From: Delftia acidovorans NBRC 14950
GTDB lineage: Bacteria; Pseudomonadota; Gammaproteobacteria; Burkholderiales; Burkholderiaceae_C
Assembly (NCBI RefSeq): GCF_001598795.1
Contig: NZ_BCZP01000005.1
Location: forward strand, 90,001 to 122,000
DNA: 32,000 nucleotides
Reading direction: 5' to 3'
Part shown: piece by piece, positions 227 to 8,372 of the stretch
How positions within the stretch are numbered: the stretch's first letter is position 1
Layout of the letters: each line of letters opens with the position of its first letter
The notes under the pieces: model-generated
The model's input: the letters and a program-made list of their open reading frames with translations, nothing else
The model's database searches: none
Told to the model about the DNA's origin: nothing
Translations under genes and position numbers: made by a program

Positions 227-1105
227 TCAGTATTTGTTGCCCACGTACGTTGAATCCCAGGCTTCGGGAATCACCAGGCCGTCGCCCACGGTGAAGTTCT
301 TGCCACCATCCTGGAGCCCGAACGTGCTCTTTGCCCACAGGCCCAGCGTTTGCCAGATCAACGACCCTGGATCGGATTGGCGATCCTTACTCGACTGCCG
401 ATGAGGGTGGACCGTCTTGATGGCGCCATTCTGGGCCGCGACCGAATCGATGATCCACCTGATCGTCGTCTGGACAGCTATCGTCTGCGCTTTCGGGAGA
501 TTCATGGGCAAGCGCTTGGGGTTCGAGCCGCCAGGTTGCCAGAGTGTCTCCGGCTTCCCCTCTATCCCAGCAAACCAGCCGTCGATCTCGATGCCGACGC
601 TGATCTTGTTGAGGTTTCCTGCATGGTTGCAAACCTCAGTCAGCGCATATAGCTGGTAGATCTTTCCCCCGCGCGTGACGCCGAAATGAATGGGCACGTT
701 GTGCCAGGCTTCTGCCGTTTCCCCGATCTTGGCGGCCGTCTGGTGCAGCACGATCGCGGTGATCGCGGACCAAGGCCTGAACGGATTGGACTTGGAACGC
801 CCTGAGTGTGGGTGCTTGAGTTCTTCGTTAATGATCTCGCTGGGAGCCGGACTCGTGCTCAAGGAGTTGAAGGCCTTGTCCAGTGCGGCTGCTCCGGCCA
901 CGGTGACCGATTTGGGGAGATCATCGGTTGGTGCAAGCAACCCTGCTTCGATCATGAAAGCGGCATACGCAGTCAGCGTTTCATCCCCAAGATCTGCATC
1001 AGCGCCGAAACGAGGCAGAGCATAGCCGAGCGCTAAAAGCTGCTTCTGAATGTTCTCGACCGCAGGCCCCTTGGAGCCGCTCTTCAGTGCACTCAAAATT
1101 GCCAT
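227..1105 (-). CDS. peptidoglycan-binding domain + N-acetylmuramoyl-L-alanine amidase (Amidase_2/PGRP-like)
   Basis: 292-aa ORF. The N-terminus GSKGPAVENIQKQLLALGY...GADADLGDETLTAYAAF looks like a PG_binding_1 repeat. The C-terminal half carries AIVLHQTAA...HFGVTRGGKIYQL...NHAG..NKISVGIEIDG...HPHRQSS..DPG, the Amidase_2 His/His/Asp-type pattern. AAGGAA SD upstream of the ATG at 1105. Confidence 0.85.
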   Translation of the reverse strand: MAILSALKSGSKGPAVENIQKQLLALGYALPRFGADADLGDETLTAYAAFMIEAGLLAPTDDLPKSVTVAGAAALDKAFNSLSTSPAPSEIINEELKHPHSGRSKSNPFRPWSAITAIVLHQTAAKIGETAEAWHNVPIHFGVTRGGKIYQLYALTEVCNHAGNLNKISVGIEIDGWFAGIEGKPETLWQPGGSNPKRLPMNLPKAQTIAVQTTIRWIIDSVAAQNGAIKTVHPHRQSSKDRQSDPGSLIWQTLGLWAKSTFGLQDGGKNFTVGDGLVIPEAWDSTYVGNKY

Positions 1106-1175
1106 GGCAGTTCCTTTTTCCCAGAGTAGTCGCGGAGAGACCAGTAGCGCGTTGGCGCCTCATTGGTCCGTACGG

Positions 1176-1868
1176 TCACTGGATGGCGTCCTCCCCGGTC
1201 ACCACTAAGGTGTCACCGTTGGCAAAGTAGAAGTCCCCTGGTATTAGCTGCTGCGCTCGTTCTTCGATCTGTTCGAGCGTCAGCGCGTTTGGGTTGGCTT
1301 CCAGCTGGGTTAAGACCTCTTGCATGGCTGGAGCCAATGCCGGCAAGCTGTAGTCGGCAGGCCGGGTCCGAAACCCCGTGTCGCCTGTGACCGACTTCAT
1401 CGCGTTGATGCAGTTCTTCCCACAGGCGTTGCCGGCGATGAGCCTGATCCATTTGGGCCCGCCAACCAACACCGCCAAGTACATGGTCTTGGCCTTCGCT
1501 TGGGAAACACCCTGGTCCAGCAGTGCATCGTAGAGCACCCGATGCGTCATCCTCCACGAGCGGACGTGACGGTCGCAGTAGTGATCGTGGATCACAGCTG
1601 CCTTGATGAACCTTGTCTCAAAGGGACTCCCGATGAACGGCTGGAAGACTCCCGGGATTGAGGCACCGTCCGTCTTGAGCCCCGCCTTCGCCTCCCAGAC
1701 CGTTCCAGATGCATCTTTGAAACGCAGAGCCTCCTTGATGATGCATTCCCCAGCGGCCTCGCATCCCTTCGGCCAGAGCACCAAATCGCCACTGAATTGG
1801 GCTGGCGCCAACGTAGGAGTGAGCAGCGCGGCAGCCGTTGCCAGCGTCCGAAACCACGATGGATTCAT
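1176..1868 (-). CDS. secreted DUF1353-family protein
   Basis: 230-aa ORF with a signal peptide (MNPSWFRTLATAAALLTPTLAPAQF). It carries the DUF1353-like core G..TDGASIP......P......AAVIHDHYC. GGAGG lies 7 nt upstream of the ATG at 1868. Confidence 0.8.
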   Translation of the reverse strand: MNPSWFRTLATAAALLTPTLAPAQFSGDLVLWPKGCEAAGECIIKEALRFKDASGTVWEAKAGLKTDGASIPGVFQPFIGSPFETRFIKAAVIHDHYCDRHVRSWRMTHRVLYDALLDQGVSQAKAKTMYLAVLVGGPKWIRLIAGNACGKNCINAMKSVTGDTGFRTRPADYSLPALAPAMQEVLTQLEANPNALTLEQIEERAQQLIPGDFYFANGDTLVVTGEDAIQ

Positions 1869-2472
1869 CTAAAACCTCCGAAAAGGAGTAGCTTGATGCC
1901 AAACGCTGGTGTGCAAAACACGAGCCGACGATGTGCCGCCAGCAACGGCGCATACATTTGCAGTAGTTTCTCGGCGGCAAATGCTTTGTGAGCAGTGCTG
2001 CGGATAGTACGGCATCTGCACGTCATTGGGCAATTGATGGCGCCGATGCCGATTTGAGCCATGTGCCAGAGAAGTGATGAGCGACTTCGCGCAAGCCGAA
2101 GGCCACGCCAGAGGTCGTGCGCTGCCTCATCTTCAAGGCTCAGATCCGCGCCTGCCACAGCAGCCGATCGCCTACAGCGCCGATAAGCTCCGGCATAAGC
2201 GGCTGATTCCGGGTAACGCGGACGAGCCACTTTCGGCGCAAAGCGCTAACTCGCCAACTGCGCGAGCAGCCGGTTGCACGATTTAGCGTTGAGTCGTCTC
2301 TGATTGACCTGTTCCAGGTGCACAGCGTACCGCCGCGCCTGTCGAGAGTCAGTGGCCTCTTTCGCAGGCGACGGTCGCTCAGTTCTGAAATCTCAAAGTC
2401 AGTAGTCAGCTTGCAGTCGTCGTTCGGTAGCGCACTGCGGCTGTCCGCCCCTGGCCGGATTCTGTCCGATGC

Positions 2473-2787
2473 TCAGGCTTCCCGCAGTTGCCCGGCAAGC
2501 ACGACAAAGTTGCTGGTGCCAGCCGTGGATTCGACTCCCGAAGGCTTCGTCGTCGAAGCACTGACCAATGACCGGCCCGCCGCGTCAATCCACTCTGATT
2601 CGACCTCGCAAGCGATAGCGCCTGGCACCGGCAACTGGTCGACAGGTAAGGGGGCGGAACTCACGATGGCATCCTTCTCCACGAACCGATGCGTCCGACC
2701 TTGTGCGTCGACCAGGATGCATTCCACCAGGGGCGGATACGCGCTGTCGTCGACGAGACGTGTGATTTCAACGGAGATAACTTTCAC
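2473..2787 (-). CDS. small hypothetical protein (104 aa)
   Basis: GTG start (2787..2785). Codon third positions look coding. The sequence is MKVISVEITRLVDDSAYPPLVECILVDAQGRTHRFVEKDAIVSS.... It resembles small immunity-like proteins I recall near toxin loci, but I cannot name a family. Confidence 0.55.
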   Translation of the reverse strand: MKVISVEITRLVDDSAYPPLVECILVDAQGRTHRFVEKDAIVSSAPLPVDQLPVPGAIACEVESEWIDAAGRSLVSASTTKPSGVESTAGTSNFVVLAGQLREA

Positions 2788-3131
2788 GAATACCTACTTC
2801 TGCTGTTTGGGCGACCGTCTGCTGTTGGCCGAAGCCGGGCCTAGCTAATGGTGAGTACAGCACCGCAAAGCTGACCTTCGAGGCTGCACCTTGAGCGTCC
2901 GGTTAAGGAGAGGCATTCAACTGGTGCAGGCCGTCGCCAGTCGGCCAAGAGCGGACGCCTACCAAAGAACGCATCAAGGAAGTCTGCCAAACCGTCTCAC
3001 ACTCAAGGAGTGTCGCCGTTGGCAGACTCGAACAACTCGGGGGCTCCAGGCGACTTGCGCACGTATGATTCCCACCAGCCGTTGGCTGCCCGGGCCTGGC
3101 TGGATCCGTTTTCACACCCGCGGGGAGGAAG

Positions 3132-6100
3132 ATGCACAACGTGCAGTTCGAGATTTCGAAACCCACCGAAGATGGGGCCTTCGAAGACATGTGTGCCCGC
3201 ATCTACGGGACTGTCTTCAATGATCCATTGCCGCAGACGAACGGGCGCCGGGGTCAGAAACAAGGCGGCATCGATGTGTTCATCGATGCACCAGAAGGCC
3301 GGCTAGGCGTTCAATGCAAGAGGTACGCAGACGGTGCCCTGAAGCTCAAGCACGTAGAGCATGAGGTCTCAGAAGCAGACAAGGCGAACACCCCAATCGT
3401 ACGCCTCATCGTCTCTACCACTGCCACGAGTGATGCGGTGCTTCTGCGGGAAGTGCAGGACCTGTCCGATGCCAGGGTGGCTAAGGGGAAGTATCCAGTC
3501 AAGATTGAGTTCTGGCAGGACCTCTGCCGGCACATTCGCGGCAGTTCGAAGCTCCAGAACGACTACGCTCCCAATGCACCTGGCGCCGTCTTTCACCGCT
3601 TGGATGAACAGAACTCAGGGATTGAGGCGAACCTGCTCAGCATCAACTCCAAACTGGAAGTTCTGACTGGCCTGCCCAGCGGCCGTGCCGACTCGGTCAA
3701 TAAGTTCCTTACTTCGCAACTTGACGCCGTCAACGATGTGCTTCGAGCCTCAAGGTTCAAGGATGCCTTTGAAGACTTGCAGCGTATCGGCGCGGACATG
3801 TCGCTTTTCGATGCTCACCAGCAGGCACGCTGGTACGTGCAGCGGGGCGTCTGCACGTGGCATCTGGAGAGCGGCGCTGCTGCTGCCCCTGACTTCCTTC
3901 GCGCCTCCGAGCTGTATCCCGACGACGAGAAAATCGCAGCTGCGAAGGTGAGAGGCCTCCTCTTCACTGACAAGGTCGACGAGGCACTGGCCGCAGGACA
4001 TGAGGCACTGGCAAGGTATCCCGTATCAGTCCACGTCTGGATTGCCCATGCCAATGCCAGGATGGTCAAGGGTCACACCCTGGCGCTCGCTGATGCACCG
4101 GCCGCGATGCGCGACGACTGCGATGTGCTGCAGCTCCTTGCTTGGGCGCGGAAGAAGGCCGGAGACCTAGCTGGCGCCGTCGAGCTTAGCGCCAAAGCAT
4201 TGGCCAAGCCGAACGCTGCGTTCTTTGTCAGGAACACGGCGCTGGTGTTGGCACTCGAGGCAGCTGCCTGCGACCCCGTAAAGGTCGCACATGGTCTGGT
4301 GGGCGAAGCAGCAATCGCCGCGCTTAGGCAGGCAGTCGAAGCGCTCACCCCGCGAAAAGACCAGGTTTGGGCGGTGCAATCGCCGGGCTCAGTCGAAGAA
4401 ACGCTGGTGCACCTTGGCTACAGCTACCTTGTGCTGGGTGCGCCTGGTGAGACTTTGGCTCTTATCGAGGAGGCCCGACACGCCGGCGTGCTGCCCCCTC
4501 GGCTGAAACGCGTCGCACTAGAAGCCTATCGTAGACTGGGCCGCTCAGACGAATTGGACCAACTTGGTCGGGAGTGGCTGGAAGATCTGGAGGAAGAGGC
4601 GTTGATTCTGGTCGCGGAGCATGCCGCTGATGTGGGCGATGTTCAGCTGGTCGAGGCAGTGCAAGCCTTGGTGACGCAAAAGGGCTACCAGCAGGCAGAG
4701 GTGCCGCACTTGCTGCTCGCTATGCGGTGGGTCGCTCTTTGGCGCTCGGGCACCGGCAAGCTGCAAGCGCTGACGGAGGTCAAGGCAGCGGATGTTGCGA
4801 ACTCAAACAGCCTCGCCGTCATATGTGGCGGCGCCCGGATACTGCATGCGGATAAAGACGAAGTGACAGCCGATGCCGCGATTGAAAAGGCCTGCACCCT
4901 GGTGTCAAAGGACACTGCTTCGGCAGAGCGACTCTTGCTCGCGGACCTGCTCTTCGCCACGGACAAGCTGGAGTTTGCCGCTCGTCAGTACGAGCTACTC
5001 GCCCCACGCGGCAAGCACTCCGAGCTCCACAACCGGCTGCTTCGCTGCTATGTGCGCACGGGCGCACTCCGCAAGGCGAAGGAACTGATCTTGTCGTTTC
5101 CAGACACCTGGACAAGCGACGAACGAACTTTGAGTCTCGCAATTGACCTAGGACAGCAGGCATCAGACTGGGAGTTTCTGGTTCCCCTTGCTGAGTTGCA
5201 TTGCGAGCGGCGGCCGCAGGAGGCCGGCGGCTGGTTGCTACGTCTCGCGCTCGACCTCAAGATGCGCAAGATGGCCCGATTCCACCATGCGCTTGAGTCG
5301 GTTCCGGCCGACTTGTCAGGGCCACCAAGACTCCTTTCTCAGGTTGCGTCACTTGAACTCCGCTTCGGCCGCAAAGAGACCGGCATGCTGCGGCTGTATG
5401 GCATGTTTCGTCGCAACCTCGACGATGTAGATGCAGCCTCAGCCTACTTCATCGCCCTAGTTGCCGCACCTCAAGAGCTTCCATTCATGGAAGAGGAACT
5501 GACGGAAGTTCAGCCTGGGGTTGCCGTGACGCTCAAGAACGAATTGGGCGAGACGGTGACACTGTCTCTGGACCCGGCGGGTTTGCCGGGCCTCCCAGCT
5601 CGCGAAGGCATGGTCGCTCCGTCCGATGATCTAGCCCGCAGCCTACTGGGCGCGGCCGTGGGCCAGCAAGTCTCTCTGCCCGGACCCTTCGGAACCGAAC
5701 TGCGCTTCGTTGTCGAAGGGGTGACAAGTACCTTCCGGCGGCTGCTTCACATCGCGCAGGCACGGGTCAACTCGCCTGTTGCTTCAAACCTGCCGTTGAT
5801 GTCCGTTCCTGTCCCGAAAACAGACAAAGGGGTCGATTTCAGCCACGTGCACGCCATGCTGAAGCGGCAGTCCGAGCACTCACGCCGCGCGCTTCAAGGC
5901 TACGCGGACAGCCCCATCACGCTGGGAATTTTGGGCAAGCTGCTCGGCCGAAGCGTGATAGACATGGTCGCTGGTTGGCCGTCTGACGCGCCGCCCTTGT
6001 TCGTGTGCGATGGCACCAAGGAGCAACGGGAGGCTGCTGTTGAACTGCTCCAACGGCATGACGTCGAGTATGTTGTTGACGCTGCAACCATTGCCGAACT

Positions 6101-7373
6101 GGCGTCACTTGACTGTCTTGCCGCCCTGGCGGCGTTACCTCGCGTCTATATCTCTACGAAGTCCGTTGAGACTCTCGAAGCTCGACTCGAAGAGGCGAAG
6201 GTCGAACGCTCCGACGGGCAGATGTTTGATGACAACGGCACGATGCGGTTTGTCGAGTACACGACCCAGGACAGGGAGCGGCAGACCGCGTTCATTCAAA
6301 CCATGGTTGACGCCGTCCGACTGCACTGTGTGATGGCTCCTGCTTATGGCCCGGAAGAGATTCCGGCAGACCTGGAGCGAGCGCAGGACGTTCTCGAAGA
6401 CGAGGAACTCGCTGCACTGCTACTGACATCGGAAAAGAACGCAACCCTGTTCACCGTTGACGGGCGACTCGCTCAGTTTGGTCTTGCATCGGCGAAGCTC
6501 AAGTCGGTGTGGCCGCAGGAGGTTCTCCGGTACGCCGGAGAACGAGGGGAACTGACGCCCCAGCAATACACCTACGCTGTCGTTCGGATGTTTCTGCGGA
6601 ATCGCAGCTTCGTCTCGCTAGGCTCGTACGACTTGGTGTTCATGTGCTTGCAAGGAGGCTACGCGCTAACCGAGGGGCTTCAGCGATTCAAGGACTACTT
6701 GGCCTCCGGTTCCACTGAGCTTGTGTCGGCTGTTTCTGTTGCGTTCGAGTTCCTCGAGCTTCAAGCGCAACACCCCACTCAGTTCAAGGCGTTTGCGGAG
6801 CTCATGGGCCACATCGTCGAAGCGAGCCTTCGCCATCCGCACTGCAATCAGGAGGTACTCTTAAAGTTCGCACTTGATTTTGCAAGCGATATGGCACTCA
6901 AGAGCAATGGTACCTTCATACCGTACTCTCTTGCCGAGGGCTACAGGCAGGCGCGCATGCGTGTCTACGCCAAGGTCCTCGGGGATGCGGTTGAGGCCGC
7001 CGAACGGCTAGCCAGTTCACCTCCGCGTCGACGAGCAATCAAGCTGCGTGCGTTGAAGTGTACGCAGCCTCCGTATCTCACGTTCGATGGTGAGGCGAGG
7101 GATCCAGTCGAGCCACCTATCCAGCAAGTGGACGCGGCGCGCGGAGAAGACTTTCAAGCCGAAGGTGTTACGACCACGTTAGGCAGCAGTCAGGCAGTGA
7201 TGCCGCCCCGCGCTGACGAAGCGGATGAACGTGCTGAAGATGCGACAACTAAACAGGAGCCGCAGCGAAGCACAGGGGGCGACTTGACGGTCAACTTCGA
7301 AACGGGCTCCGTTCCCCGAAAGCAGTCAGAACCCGATCCACTAACAATCCTAAAAGTGCCACTGGAAAGCTAA
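3132..7373 (+). CDS. large multidomain protein: N-terminal Mrr-like PD-(D/E)xK nuclease, TPR-like helical repeats, PIN-like module, acidic disordered tail
   Basis: 1413-aa ORF with GGAGGAAG immediately upstream of the ATG. The N-terminus FEDMCARIYG...GQKQGGIDVFIDAPEGRLGVQCKRY...IVRLIVSTTATSDAV follows the Mrr_cat pattern (D48 at 3273-3275, Q-C-K63 at 3312-3320). The Ala/Leu-rich repeat region (~3800-5300) looks TPR-like. EYVVDAATIAEL (D983, 6078-6080), RVYISTKSVETLE and DEELAALLLTSEKNATLFTVDGRLAQ (D1110, 6459-6461) follow the PIN acidic-residue layout. I saw no Walker A motif. Confidence 0.85.
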   Translation: MHNVQFEISKPTEDGAFEDMCARIYGTVFNDPLPQTNGRRGQKQGGIDVFIDAPEGRLGVQCKRYADGALKLKHVEHEVSEADKANTPIVRLIVSTTATSDAVLLREVQDLSDARVAKGKYPVKIEFWQDLCRHIRGSSKLQNDYAPNAPGAVFHRLDEQNSGIEANLLSINSKLEVLTGLPSGRADSVNKFLTSQLDAVNDVLRASRFKDAFEDLQRIGADMSLFDAHQQARWYVQRGVCTWHLESGAAAAPDFLRASELYPDDEKIAAAKVRGLLFTDKVDEALAAGHEALARYPVSVHVWIAHANARMVKGHTLALADAPAAMRDDCDVLQLLAWARKKAGDLAGAVELSAKALAKPNAAFFVRNTALVLALEAAACDPVKVAHGLVGEAAIAALRQAVEALTPRKDQVWAVQSPGSVEETLVHLGYSYLVLGAPGETLALIEEARHAGVLPPRLKRVALEAYRRLGRSDELDQLGREWLEDLEEEALILVAEHAADVGDVQLVEAVQALVTQKGYQQAEVPHLLLAMRWVALWRSGTGKLQALTEVKAADVANSNSLAVICGGARILHADKDEVTADAAIEKACTLVSKDTASAERLLLADLLFATDKLEFAARQYELLAPRGKHSELHNRLLRCYVRTGALRKAKELILSFPDTWTSDERTLSLAIDLGQQASDWEFLVPLAELHCERRPQEAGGWLLRLALDLKMRKMARFHHALESVPADLSGPPRLLSQVASLELRFGRKETGMLRLYGMFRRNLDDVDAASAYFIALVAAPQELPFMEEELTEVQPGVAVTLKNELGETVTLSLDPAGLPGLPAREGMVAPSDDLARSLLGAAVGQQVSLPGPFGTELRFVVEGVTSTFRRLLHIAQARVNSPVASNLPLMSVPVPKTDKGVDFSHVHAMLKRQSEHSRRALQGYADSPITLGILGKLLGRSVIDMVAGWPSDAPPLFVCDGTKEQREAAVELLQRHDVEYVVDAATIAELASLDCLAALAALPRVYISTKSVETLEARLEEAKVERSDGQMFDDNGTMRFVEYTTQDRERQTAFIQTMVDAVRLHCVMAPAYGPEEIPADLERAQDVLEDEELAALLLTSEKNATLFTVDGRLAQFGLASAKLKSVWPQEVLRYAGERGELTPQQYTYAVVRMFLRNRSFVSLGSYDLVFMCLQGGYALTEGLQRFKDYLASGSTELVSAVSVAFEFLELQAQHPTQFKAFAELMGHIVEASLRHPHCNQEVLLKFALDFASDMALKSNGTFIPYSLAEGYRQARMRVYAKVLGDAVEAAERLASSPPRRRAIKLRALKCTQPPYLTFDGEARDPVEPPIQQVDAARGEDFQAEGVTTTLGSSQAVMPPRADEADERAEDATTKQEPQRSTGGDLTVNFETGSVPRKQSEPDPLTILKVPLES

Positions 7374-7464
7374 GACCCAGCCTACTGGTTTAGTTCCGCA
7401 GGTTCCTCTGCGATATTATTACGTTTAGGCGCCGCATCACACACCCTCGATAAAGTGGAGAAGC

Positions 7465-8067
7465 ATGGACTGGCTTACGTTCATCAGCAAGTTAGTTGAC
7501 TCTTTAGCATGGCCAGTGGCAGGAGTTCTTCTGGGCCTCATCTTCCGCAAGAAGCTACTTGACCTGATTCCATTACTCCGCAGGGTGAAGGCGGGTCCAT
7601 TGGAAGCTGAGTTCGAGATCGCAGCAAAGCAAGTACTGGCAAGCACCGCTGAGCTGACCTCGAAGCAGCAGACACCAGATGTTGCCCAAACGGGAACTCA
7701 ACCGAACGAGGGAGACACAGCAGAGAAATTGCTTACAGCAAGATCTGAACCGACCGCAACCATCATCGAGGGTTGGTCAACATTGGACGGAGAGTTGTAT
7801 AAGCTTGGACGTCAGACTGGAATCGTGGTTGATCCACTTGAAAACCAACTCAAGGTGTATCAGGCCGTCATGGATTCAAACGTAATTCCAGTCGAGACAA
7901 GGCAGTTAGTGAAAAACCTTCGGCTGTTGCGAAATCAAGTCGCTCACGCGAAGGTCATTCCCACGCCCGAATCCGCACAGGACTATTTGGTGTCTATCGA
8001 GCGCGTGGTCGAACTCATACGCAACTACCGGAAAAACCTGCCTGGCTACACTGCCGATGTTCGCTAA
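7465..8067 (+). CDS. DUF4145/HEPN-like protein with N-terminal hydrophobic helix
   Basis: 200-aa ORF with GGAGA 5 nt upstream of the ATG. The N-terminal hydrophobic segment is LAWPVAGVLLGLIF. The C-terminus ...TRQLVKNLRLLRNQVAHAKVIPTPESAQDYLVSIERVVELI matches the DUF4145 pattern as I recall it (..lR..gN..aH....t..ea). It contains R-x4-H (RNQVAH, 7930-7947). Confidence 0.8.
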   Translation: MDWLTFISKLVDSLAWPVAGVLLGLIFRKKLLDLIPLLRRVKAGPLEAEFEIAAKQVLASTAELTSKQQTPDVAQTGTQPNEGDTAEKLLTARSEPTATIIEGWSTLDGELYKLGRQTGIVVDPLENQLKVYQAVMDSNVIPVETRQLVKNLRLLRNQVAHAKVIPTPESAQDYLVSIERVVELIRNYRKNLPGYTADVR

Positions 8068-8372
8068 GCACGGGAGCTCCTATGGCAAGCCACTAGGTGA
8101 GATTCGCCTCAAATGTCGAGCATCCGCAGGAGATACCCGTCACCGACCGACGTTAGTCGCGACCCATGGCTGCCGCCCGAAAGGCCGCGTGCCGGCGCGC
8201 GTATTGCTGCGAATGCAGGTCTCGGCTTCCGAAGATCGCATCTTTGCTTACGAGCTGAAGCGGTCATCGCTCATCTTCCTTCAAGTTGAGTATATATTTG
8301 TTACGTAATTAAGACCTCTCCTGCAAGCTAGCGAACCAAGCCAGCTTCTATGGAAGAAGAACCCATGTCAAC

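Follow-up and report, generated by a model that had tools for sequence, protein, structure and literature searches.

A REase-headed TPR-GreA/B-C-PIN gene, predicted to act as a single-protein conflict system, in a variable region of Delftia acidovorans

The TPR-GreA/B-C-PIN (TGP) proteins were defined by Kaur et al. (2021, eLife 10:e70394) as having a constant core of TPR repeats, a GreA/B C-terminal domain (GreA/B-C) and a PIN nuclease domain, combined with 13 alternative N-terminal effectors that include restriction endonuclease (REase) domains. In their prediction, GreA/B-C contacts RNA polymerase at its secondary channel, binding the beta' coiled coil there, and PIN cuts the transcript; should this fail, the N-terminal effector is set free. 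REase-headed entries account for 906/2835 architecture-string occurrences in their table, about a third, and the core is also catalogued with the non-nuclease heads TIR, PNPase, and EAD10. Agp/Bab is the only experimentally tested TGP system that we found in the literature searched. Agp, a TGP protein of Escherichia coli ECOR25, and its partner Bab protect against phage T5; GreA/B-C mutations that mimic polymerase-binding-defective GreA abolish T5 resistance, and PIN substitution D762N abolishes protection but destabilises the protein (bioRxiv 10.1101/2024.11.07.622273). Here we analyse a gene in a 32,000-nucleotide (nt) stretch of the Delftia acidovorans NBRC 14950 genome (contig NZ_BCZP01000005.1, positions 90,001 to 122,000), hereafter the window. 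The gene, a 1413-aa open reading frame (ORF) at 3132-7373 (+), almost certainly encodes a REase-headed TGP protein.

The ORF has an ATG start behind a GGAGG Shine-Dalgarno sequence (3124-3128) and is the sole long ORF across its stretch. From the N-terminus, the product comprises an Mrr-like REase head, TPR-like repeats, GreA/B-C, PIN, a helical C-domain, and an acidic tail. It thus combines the features that mark the family: a PIN domain of the PF20698 type, GreA/B-C upstream of PIN, a TPR array, a variable N-terminal effector, and a stand-alone gene. We identified 87 homologues, mostly full-length. A catalogued orthologue is Acav_0193 (ADX44119.1) of Paracidovorax avenae, 92% identical to the window protein. 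The source-data table of Kaur et al. (2021, eLife 10:e70394) lists it, with 1383 aa and under Acidovorax avenae ATCC 19860, as a stand-alone "REase+TPR+GreAB-C+PIN" protein. The two have domain order, PIN subfamily, stand-alone gene, and variable N-terminal effector slot in common and do not differ in architecture; the window copy has an acidic tail that is 30 aa longer and divergent, and an unrelated reverse transcriptase (RT) module adjoins it. Given the order REase, TPR, GreA/B-C, PIN and the catalogued 92% orthologue, the gene is a rediscovery of a known family, one already catalogued in 2021, and the locus adds no new architecture.

A first-pass annotation of this DNA, made from the sequence without database searches, had described an Mrr-like head and a PIN-like module on one long repeat scaffold with no NTPase, and had proposed a single-protein defence factor or a partner of the RT cassette. 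The two nuclease folds on one scaffold are borne out by PF20698, the Mrr-like head, and the TPR array, and the gene matches the TGP family of predicted anti-phage genes, as the single-protein proposal would have it. Family membership likewise supports the reading of a single-protein, ATP-independent defence gene. Two parts had been missed, GreA/B-C (about residues 790-866) and the helical domain at 1136-1310. The former defines the family, and its recognition moves the likely mechanism from an Avs-like sensing of phage proteins to RNA polymerase docking.

The PIN domain was identified by the Pfam family named for the system. PF20698 ("PIN domain associated with the TPR-GreAB-C-PIN system") matches residues 981-1116 with E=8.8e-19 and 68.6 bits, against a cut-off of 27.8. 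Residue conservation was judged over 32 homologues with 34-92% identity to the window protein, and D983, E989, E1092 (of DEE), and D1110 are invariant among them. The acidic quartet that had been read from the sequence was right for D983, E1092, and D1110, but the acid of its 'S..V..E' motif varies; the fourth invariant acid is E989, six residues after D983. The insertion that had been placed between the strands is visible in an AlphaFold2 (AF2) model as a beta-hairpin and helix between PIN core strands, at about 1029-1065. Foldseek aligns the domain with PAE2754, VapC4, and HARP at probabilities of 0.94-1.0. Like VapC-type PIN toxins and HARP, the window domain has the PIN fold with conserved acids; unlike them, it has no antitoxin partner, carries the inserted hairpin and helix, shows the acid pattern D983, E989, E1092, D1110, and belongs to a family of its own.

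Between the repeats and PIN lies the small, beta-rich GreA/B-C domain, without the Gre N-terminal coiled coil. A single-sequence search with Pfam GreA_GreB gave a weak match (E=0.064). PF01272 matches are on record in three homologues, and the Gfh1 C-terminal domain (residues 81-155) is matched over its full length, at E=0.0027 by the profile of the whole protein and at 3e-4 by that of the domain slice. In the AF2 model of residues 772-1325, which has a predicted local distance difference test score (pLDDT) of 87.5, the GreA/B-C part matches 2pn0, Gfh1, GreA, GreB, and 3bmb with Foldseek probability 1.0. The hallmark residues stay invariant, or almost so, in homologues with as little as 34% identity; the hallmark motif reads LARSLLG (about 834-840) and corresponds to the site of the Agp substitutions S628L/L634P. 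The C-terminal globular fold and the hallmark sequence motif are common to the window domain and GreA, GreB, Gfh1, and Rnk, whereas the coiled coil with which those proteins reach the polymerase active site is absent and the window domain is embedded in a 1413-aa nuclease-bearing protein. Lacking that coiled coil, the protein could dock without stimulating the polymerase's own cleavage.

The N-terminal head carries the motifs of an Mrr-like PD-(D/E)xK nuclease at F17-E18, G45-G46-I47-D48-V49, V60-Q61-C62-K63-R64-Y65, and I89...T97, where they had been read in the first pass. The catalytic candidates E18, D48, Q61, and K63, which form the pattern E...D...QxK, are conserved in at least 90% of homologues and invariant in an alignment of 20 heads (the window protein and 19 homologues). 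The acids are therefore conserved in both nuclease domains across the 32 homologues, the point on which the first-pass assignments had been made to depend. Pfam Mrr_cat matches the head alone with 21.1 bits (cut-off 21); among the 20 heads, Mrr_cat was matched in 18 and Mrr_cat_2 in 17. The AF2 model of residues 1-175 (pLDDT 89, predicted template modelling score 0.82) has an alpha-beta-beta-beta-alpha-beta core, with helices at 14-28 and 72-84 and strands at 49-53, 56-63, and 91-96. The best Foldseek match in the PDB is the Avs4 chain 8dgf_A, followed by EcoO109I, NucS/EndoMS, Hjc, and the Can2 nuclease domain. Each of these lines is weak alone; the Mrr-like assignment holds because sequence, conservation, and fold combine. 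The head may cleave DNA, possibly in a modification-dependent manner. Matches of the head profile to the retron Eco8 RT among PDB sequences (E about 0.7-1) are at chance level and were dropped as noise.

The effector slot is variable among relatives. In about 18/64 genomic relatives, the TPR-GreA/B-C-PIN core is preceded by a different head of about 330 aa, and these relatives begin to match the window protein at about residue 180. No Pfam family was found in this alternative N-terminal domain. Loci with it are L020, L023, L029, L032, L035, L037, L039-L041, L048, L051, L053, L054, L057-L059, and L063 of our set, and the motifs 'STGGxGxxFExRVQA', 'TDDL', and 'LQ(V/M)K' are conserved in it. They look like a second nuclease signature with a D...QxK pattern, perhaps a DUF4365-like one.

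The central repeats extend over about 580 residues, of which 17% are Ala and 15% Leu. With the family profile, consensus TPR proteins were retrieved at E=3.7e-11, TPR_9 is matched weakly in the window protein, and TPR Pfam matches are on record for homologues, so that the repeat array described in the first pass is a TPR-like one. Also in line with that description, neither a Walker A/B motif (regular expression search) nor a P-loop family (Pfam, PADLOC) was found in the 1413-aa protein. Avs4-type STAND proteins (PDB 8dgf), which consist of an Mrr-like nuclease, a STAND ATPase, and a TPR sensor, likewise place an N-terminal nuclease on a large TPR-containing single protein. However, the window protein has no STAND/NTPase domain or Walker motifs, and its GreA/B-C and PIN domains are absent from Avs; it is therefore not a STAND protein.

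Table 1. Features of the TGP locus, in window coordinates.
Feature	Residues	Coordinates	Strand	Basis
Whole gene, REase-TPR-GreA/B-C-PIN (TGP) protein		3132..7373	+	ORF call; homologues; catalogued orthologue Acav_0193
Conserved 5' leader		2941..3131	+	blastn against relatives, alignment, RNAalifold
Mrr-like PD-(D/E)xK (REase) effector head	1-150	3132..3581	+	Mrr_cat matches, conservation, AF2, Foldseek
Connecting helix and linker	151-200	3582..3731	+	AF2 helix 150-174
Ala/Leu-rich TPR-like helical repeats	201-780	3732..5471	+	Profile, Pfam, composition
GreA/B C-terminal domain, predicted RNA-polymerase-docking module	790-866	5499..5729	+	Profile, Foldseek
Conserved, mostly helical connector from GreA/B-C to PIN	881-975	5772..6056	+	AF2
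PIN nuclease domain, PF20698 type	976-1135	6057..6536	+	Pfam, conservation, Foldseek
Conserved all-helical C-terminal domain	1136-1310	6537..7061	+	AF2 pLDDT about 90
Acidic, Pro-rich, unconserved tail	1311-1413	7062..7370	+	Composition, alignment

The remaining parts of the protein are listed in Table 1. The connector has the invariant residues D902, Y924, T930, W949, and G961. Conserved residues of the helical C-domain include R1158 and E1230; a Pfam scan of the C-terminal 267 aa identified no family in it, and Foldseek gave no convincing match. The tail, which the first-pass annotation had also called acidic, has 19% D/E, 12% Pro, and a net charge of -11 over its last 103 residues, with a column identity of 0.19 and 46% gaps.

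The gene moves on its own. In blastn comparisons of the window with the loci of close relatives, similarity is confined to 2941-~7300, at 81-93% identity, and the flanks are unrelated. Such shared DNA occurs in at least five named genera (Paracidovorax, Variovorax, Pseudaquabacterium, Rhizobacter, Rhodoferax) and in two metagenome-assembled genomes of Burkholderiales. The similarity ends between 7084 and 7300, depending on the relative, ahead of the stop codon. The moving unit is therefore the TGP gene with its leader of about 190 nt. Relatives are found on 51 plasmid records, 23 of them conjugative, and none among phage genome records. The neighbours of 35 loci are heterogeneous, with no family in more than 3/140 ORFs; scattered among them are a CBASS cyclase with a SLATT protein, a type I methyltransferase, PD-T7-5, bSEFIR, mad2, and transposases. 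Small upstream ORFs of two relatives (83 and 97 aa) were considered as a conserved partner and rejected, being mutually unrelated and absent from the window. One-gene transfer, shuffled heads, and heterogeneous neighbours fit the published picture of a stand-alone conflict gene that is rapidly shuffled, and argue against a housekeeping role. In the survey of homologues for association with defence islands that the first-pass annotation had called for, defence genes and transposases are scattered among the neighbours, and many other neighbours are metabolic genes.

Overall, we explain the locus, with good confidence, as a REase-headed TGP single-protein conflict system and an orthologue of Acav_0193. 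By analogy with the family, anti-phage defence is the likely role of its product. We suggest that GreA/B-C would dock at the beta' coiled coil of RNA polymerase, close to the secondary channel, while the TPR array and the C-domain would keep the protein in an off state and sense either a phage-induced change of the transcription complex or a phage protein. The PIN domain would then cut the transcript RNA. The Mrr-like head would be the terminal effector, cutting DNA probably after release or self-association, and the phage would be stopped or the cell killed (abortive infection). No ATP switch features in this scheme. The part of 8dgf_A that the head matches, the aligned target region not being in the output, is presumably the N-terminal Mrr-like domain of Avs4. 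In Avs4, the Mrr-like nuclease effector is activated by oligomerisation; since the head finds its best structural match in the Avs4 chain, it may be released or assembled in a similar way. The specific order of the steps, drawn by analogy, is tentative.

Comparison with Agp bears on both ends of this scheme. The TPR-GreA/B-C-PIN core is common to Agp and the window protein, and GreA/B-C is needed for protection by Agp. At the other end, the window protein departs from Agp/Bab: an Mrr-like nuclease is fused at its N-terminus, and its gene has no conserved partner. Two Agp/Bab features were looked for and are lacking in the window: the head is ordered from about residue 11 (pLDDT at least 91) and no conserved small gene is adjacent, although no BASS11 profile search was made.

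The TGP proteins form a large, almost untested class of predicted bacterial immune proteins that, by the published prediction, watches RNA polymerase rather than phage structural proteins, with no ATPase switch. A further and unlikely possibility is that REase-headed members perform transcription-coupled restriction without a nucleotide switch, PIN cutting the nascent RNA and the head cutting the template DNA at the site of transcription. If so, this would be a sequence-independent, transcription-targeted DNA restriction, and we know of no system for which such restriction has been demonstrated. The locus at 2941-7400 is a compact test object, its leader conserved and its two nuclease sites intact.

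Several observations weigh against the defence reading or parts of it. We found no experiments on any REase-headed TGP protein in the literature searched, and a PADLOC v2 scan of the TGP protein matched no model. Foldseek E values of the head to REase structures are only ~2e-3 (best) to 1e-1, and the head profile found nothing significant among PDB sequences. Docking on RNA polymerase is inferred from the fold and from the Agp mutants; PIN catalysis is not proven even in Agp, because the PIN mutant is destabilised. The output of Agp is also of another kind, passing from an N-terminal BASS11 amyloid motif to Bab, a separate Bell-domain pore protein. Finally, the 92% orthologue in P. avenae is flanked by metabolic genes, and around other relatives, too, many neighbouring genes are metabolic ones of the ordinary kind, not parts of defence islands.

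These metabolic surroundings, which several relatives have, would also suit a housekeeping or stress role in transcription-coupled quality control, in which the protein docks on stalled RNA polymerase and its nucleases clear RNA or R-loops with no part in defence. That GreA/B-C is otherwise found in the transcription factors GreA, GreB, Gfh1, and Rnk fits such a role. We nevertheless consider it quite unlikely, given the patchy, horizontally transferred distribution with unrelated insertion sites, the relatives on conjugative plasmids, a swapping of the N-terminal domain between relatives that is typical of conflict systems, and a family member, Agp, that is a demonstrated anti-phage system.

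The matches of the head to Mrr_cat and Mrr_cat_2, and the share of REase-type heads in the published table, raise a second alternative: a modification-dependent, Mrr-like type IV restriction enzyme in which TPR-GreA/B-C-PIN is a mere scaffold or a degenerate remnant. Yet the PIN acids and the hallmark residues of GreA/B-C vary little or not at all down to 34% identity, so both domains are under selection. The same core also occurs with heads that are not nucleases, and the Pfam scan found no DNA-recognition domain typical of type IV enzymes. On these grounds, we regard a type IV enzyme as very unlikely.

A selfish addiction toxin, with a VapC-like PIN held by auto-inhibition in cis and stabilising the island, would account for a PIN fold closest to VapC-type toxins and for a gene that lies in a variable region with mobile-element genes. 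However, no small antitoxin ORF is conserved upstream or downstream among relatives, the single-gene cassettes are stable in chromosomes, and both the published family prediction and the Agp data favour defence, which makes addiction highly improbable.

The remaining question is the relationship between the TGP gene and the genes that follow it. Two modules were identified downstream. At 7465-8308 (+), a 200-aa ORF with weak matches to HEPN_Swt1 (E=0.0019) and to PADLOC CARF_HEPN models overlaps the start of an 83-aa ORF, a pair that is perhaps toxin-antitoxin-like. At 8373-11068 (+) lies a two-gene RT module, in which the stop of a 326-aa ORF (288 aa by gene callers, with a later start) overlaps the start of a 572-aa RT. 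The RT matches PADLOC RT_UG36 with E=6e-207, a UG36-type candidate defence RT. The 326-aa partner could not be placed in a Pfam family, and Rfam revealed no non-coding RNA in the vicinity.

Co-occurrence was assessed in both directions. Up to 10 kb was examined on each side of 68 TGP-relative loci, and none of the four downstream genes (RT, 326-aa ORF, HEPN-like ORF, 83-aa ORF) has a relative in any of them (0/68). Nine RT-relative loci, all metagenomic and 59-80% identical, keep the 326-aa ORF and RT pair as a unit in 8/9 cases; none of the nine has TGP, L070 alone among them having long flanks. On L070, neither TGP nor the HEPN-like gene is present. The HEPN-like/83-aa pair is absent from TGP-relative and RT-relative loci alike, and so is probably a third independent small module. 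GC content is about 0.60 in the TGP gene, 0.48-0.54 over 7-11 kb, and 0.62-0.72 in the chromosome to the right; the fall over 7-11 kb suggests that a lower-GC donor supplied the RT and HEPN-like modules in a separate acquisition. In sequencing run ERR5321934 (L079 11821-13538, equivalent to window 9350-11068), the RT is called as two ORFs of 167 and 364 aa, from either a decaying RT or an assembly error, and the TGP protein is identical.

That the TGP protein is a partner of this cassette (7465-11068), in one multi-gene defence system whose RT product, or the partner of that product, would control the two nucleases, is scarcely credible: the genes lie on the same strand in direct adjacency, with a 91-nt gap to the next ORF, the arrangement recurs with an identical TGP on 7 contigs (3 of them shown with genes), and the RT is of a candidate defence type, but there is no co-occurrence in either direction, the P. 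avenae orthologue sits elsewhere, DNA similarity stops before the TGP stop codon, the GC fall points to separate acquisitions, and the TGP protein is unchanged where the RT is split. The partnership proposed in the first-pass annotation thus fails, RT loci keeping only the 326-aa ORF with the RT. The adjacency of TGP and RT is best read as independent modules stacked in one variable region, an island co-location and not one system.

Upstream, the leader is kept with the TGP gene across genera, and blastn similarity begins within it at 2941-3131, depending on the relative. Within it, a CTTGC-N-GTATGAT block is conserved, and AGTCTGCCA (2981-2989) forms with TGGCAGACT (3020-3028) an inverted repeat that shows limited covariation. 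An Rfam scan of 2300-11400 gave no match at E up to 1, and a sigma-70 promoter scan of 2700-7700 no consensus site. Terminator-like sites occur at chance level in a scan of 2700-7700, one of them at 7397-7412, directly after the stop codon. The leader could be an operator, a promoter, or a structured 5' untranslated region. As a more modest variant of the transcription-coupled restriction idea, the leader with its inverted repeat may conceivably be a dedicated regulatory element that silences a toxic TGP protein until infection.

No tRNA was found in a scan of the whole window, so there is no obvious integration site, and a search for direct repeats flanking the island returned nothing convincing. 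The ORF at 2318-2848 has no Pfam family. Genes related to phages or to competition were identified around the island, at 227-1868 (-) and 11532-12485 (+); they include Amidase_2, DUF1353, and Bro-N, with a Tsi6-like gene further right on longer contigs (L078). Ordinary chromosome begins at about 13.2 kb, with a Cache/MCP chemoreceptor, hybrid histidine kinases, and an EAL regulator.

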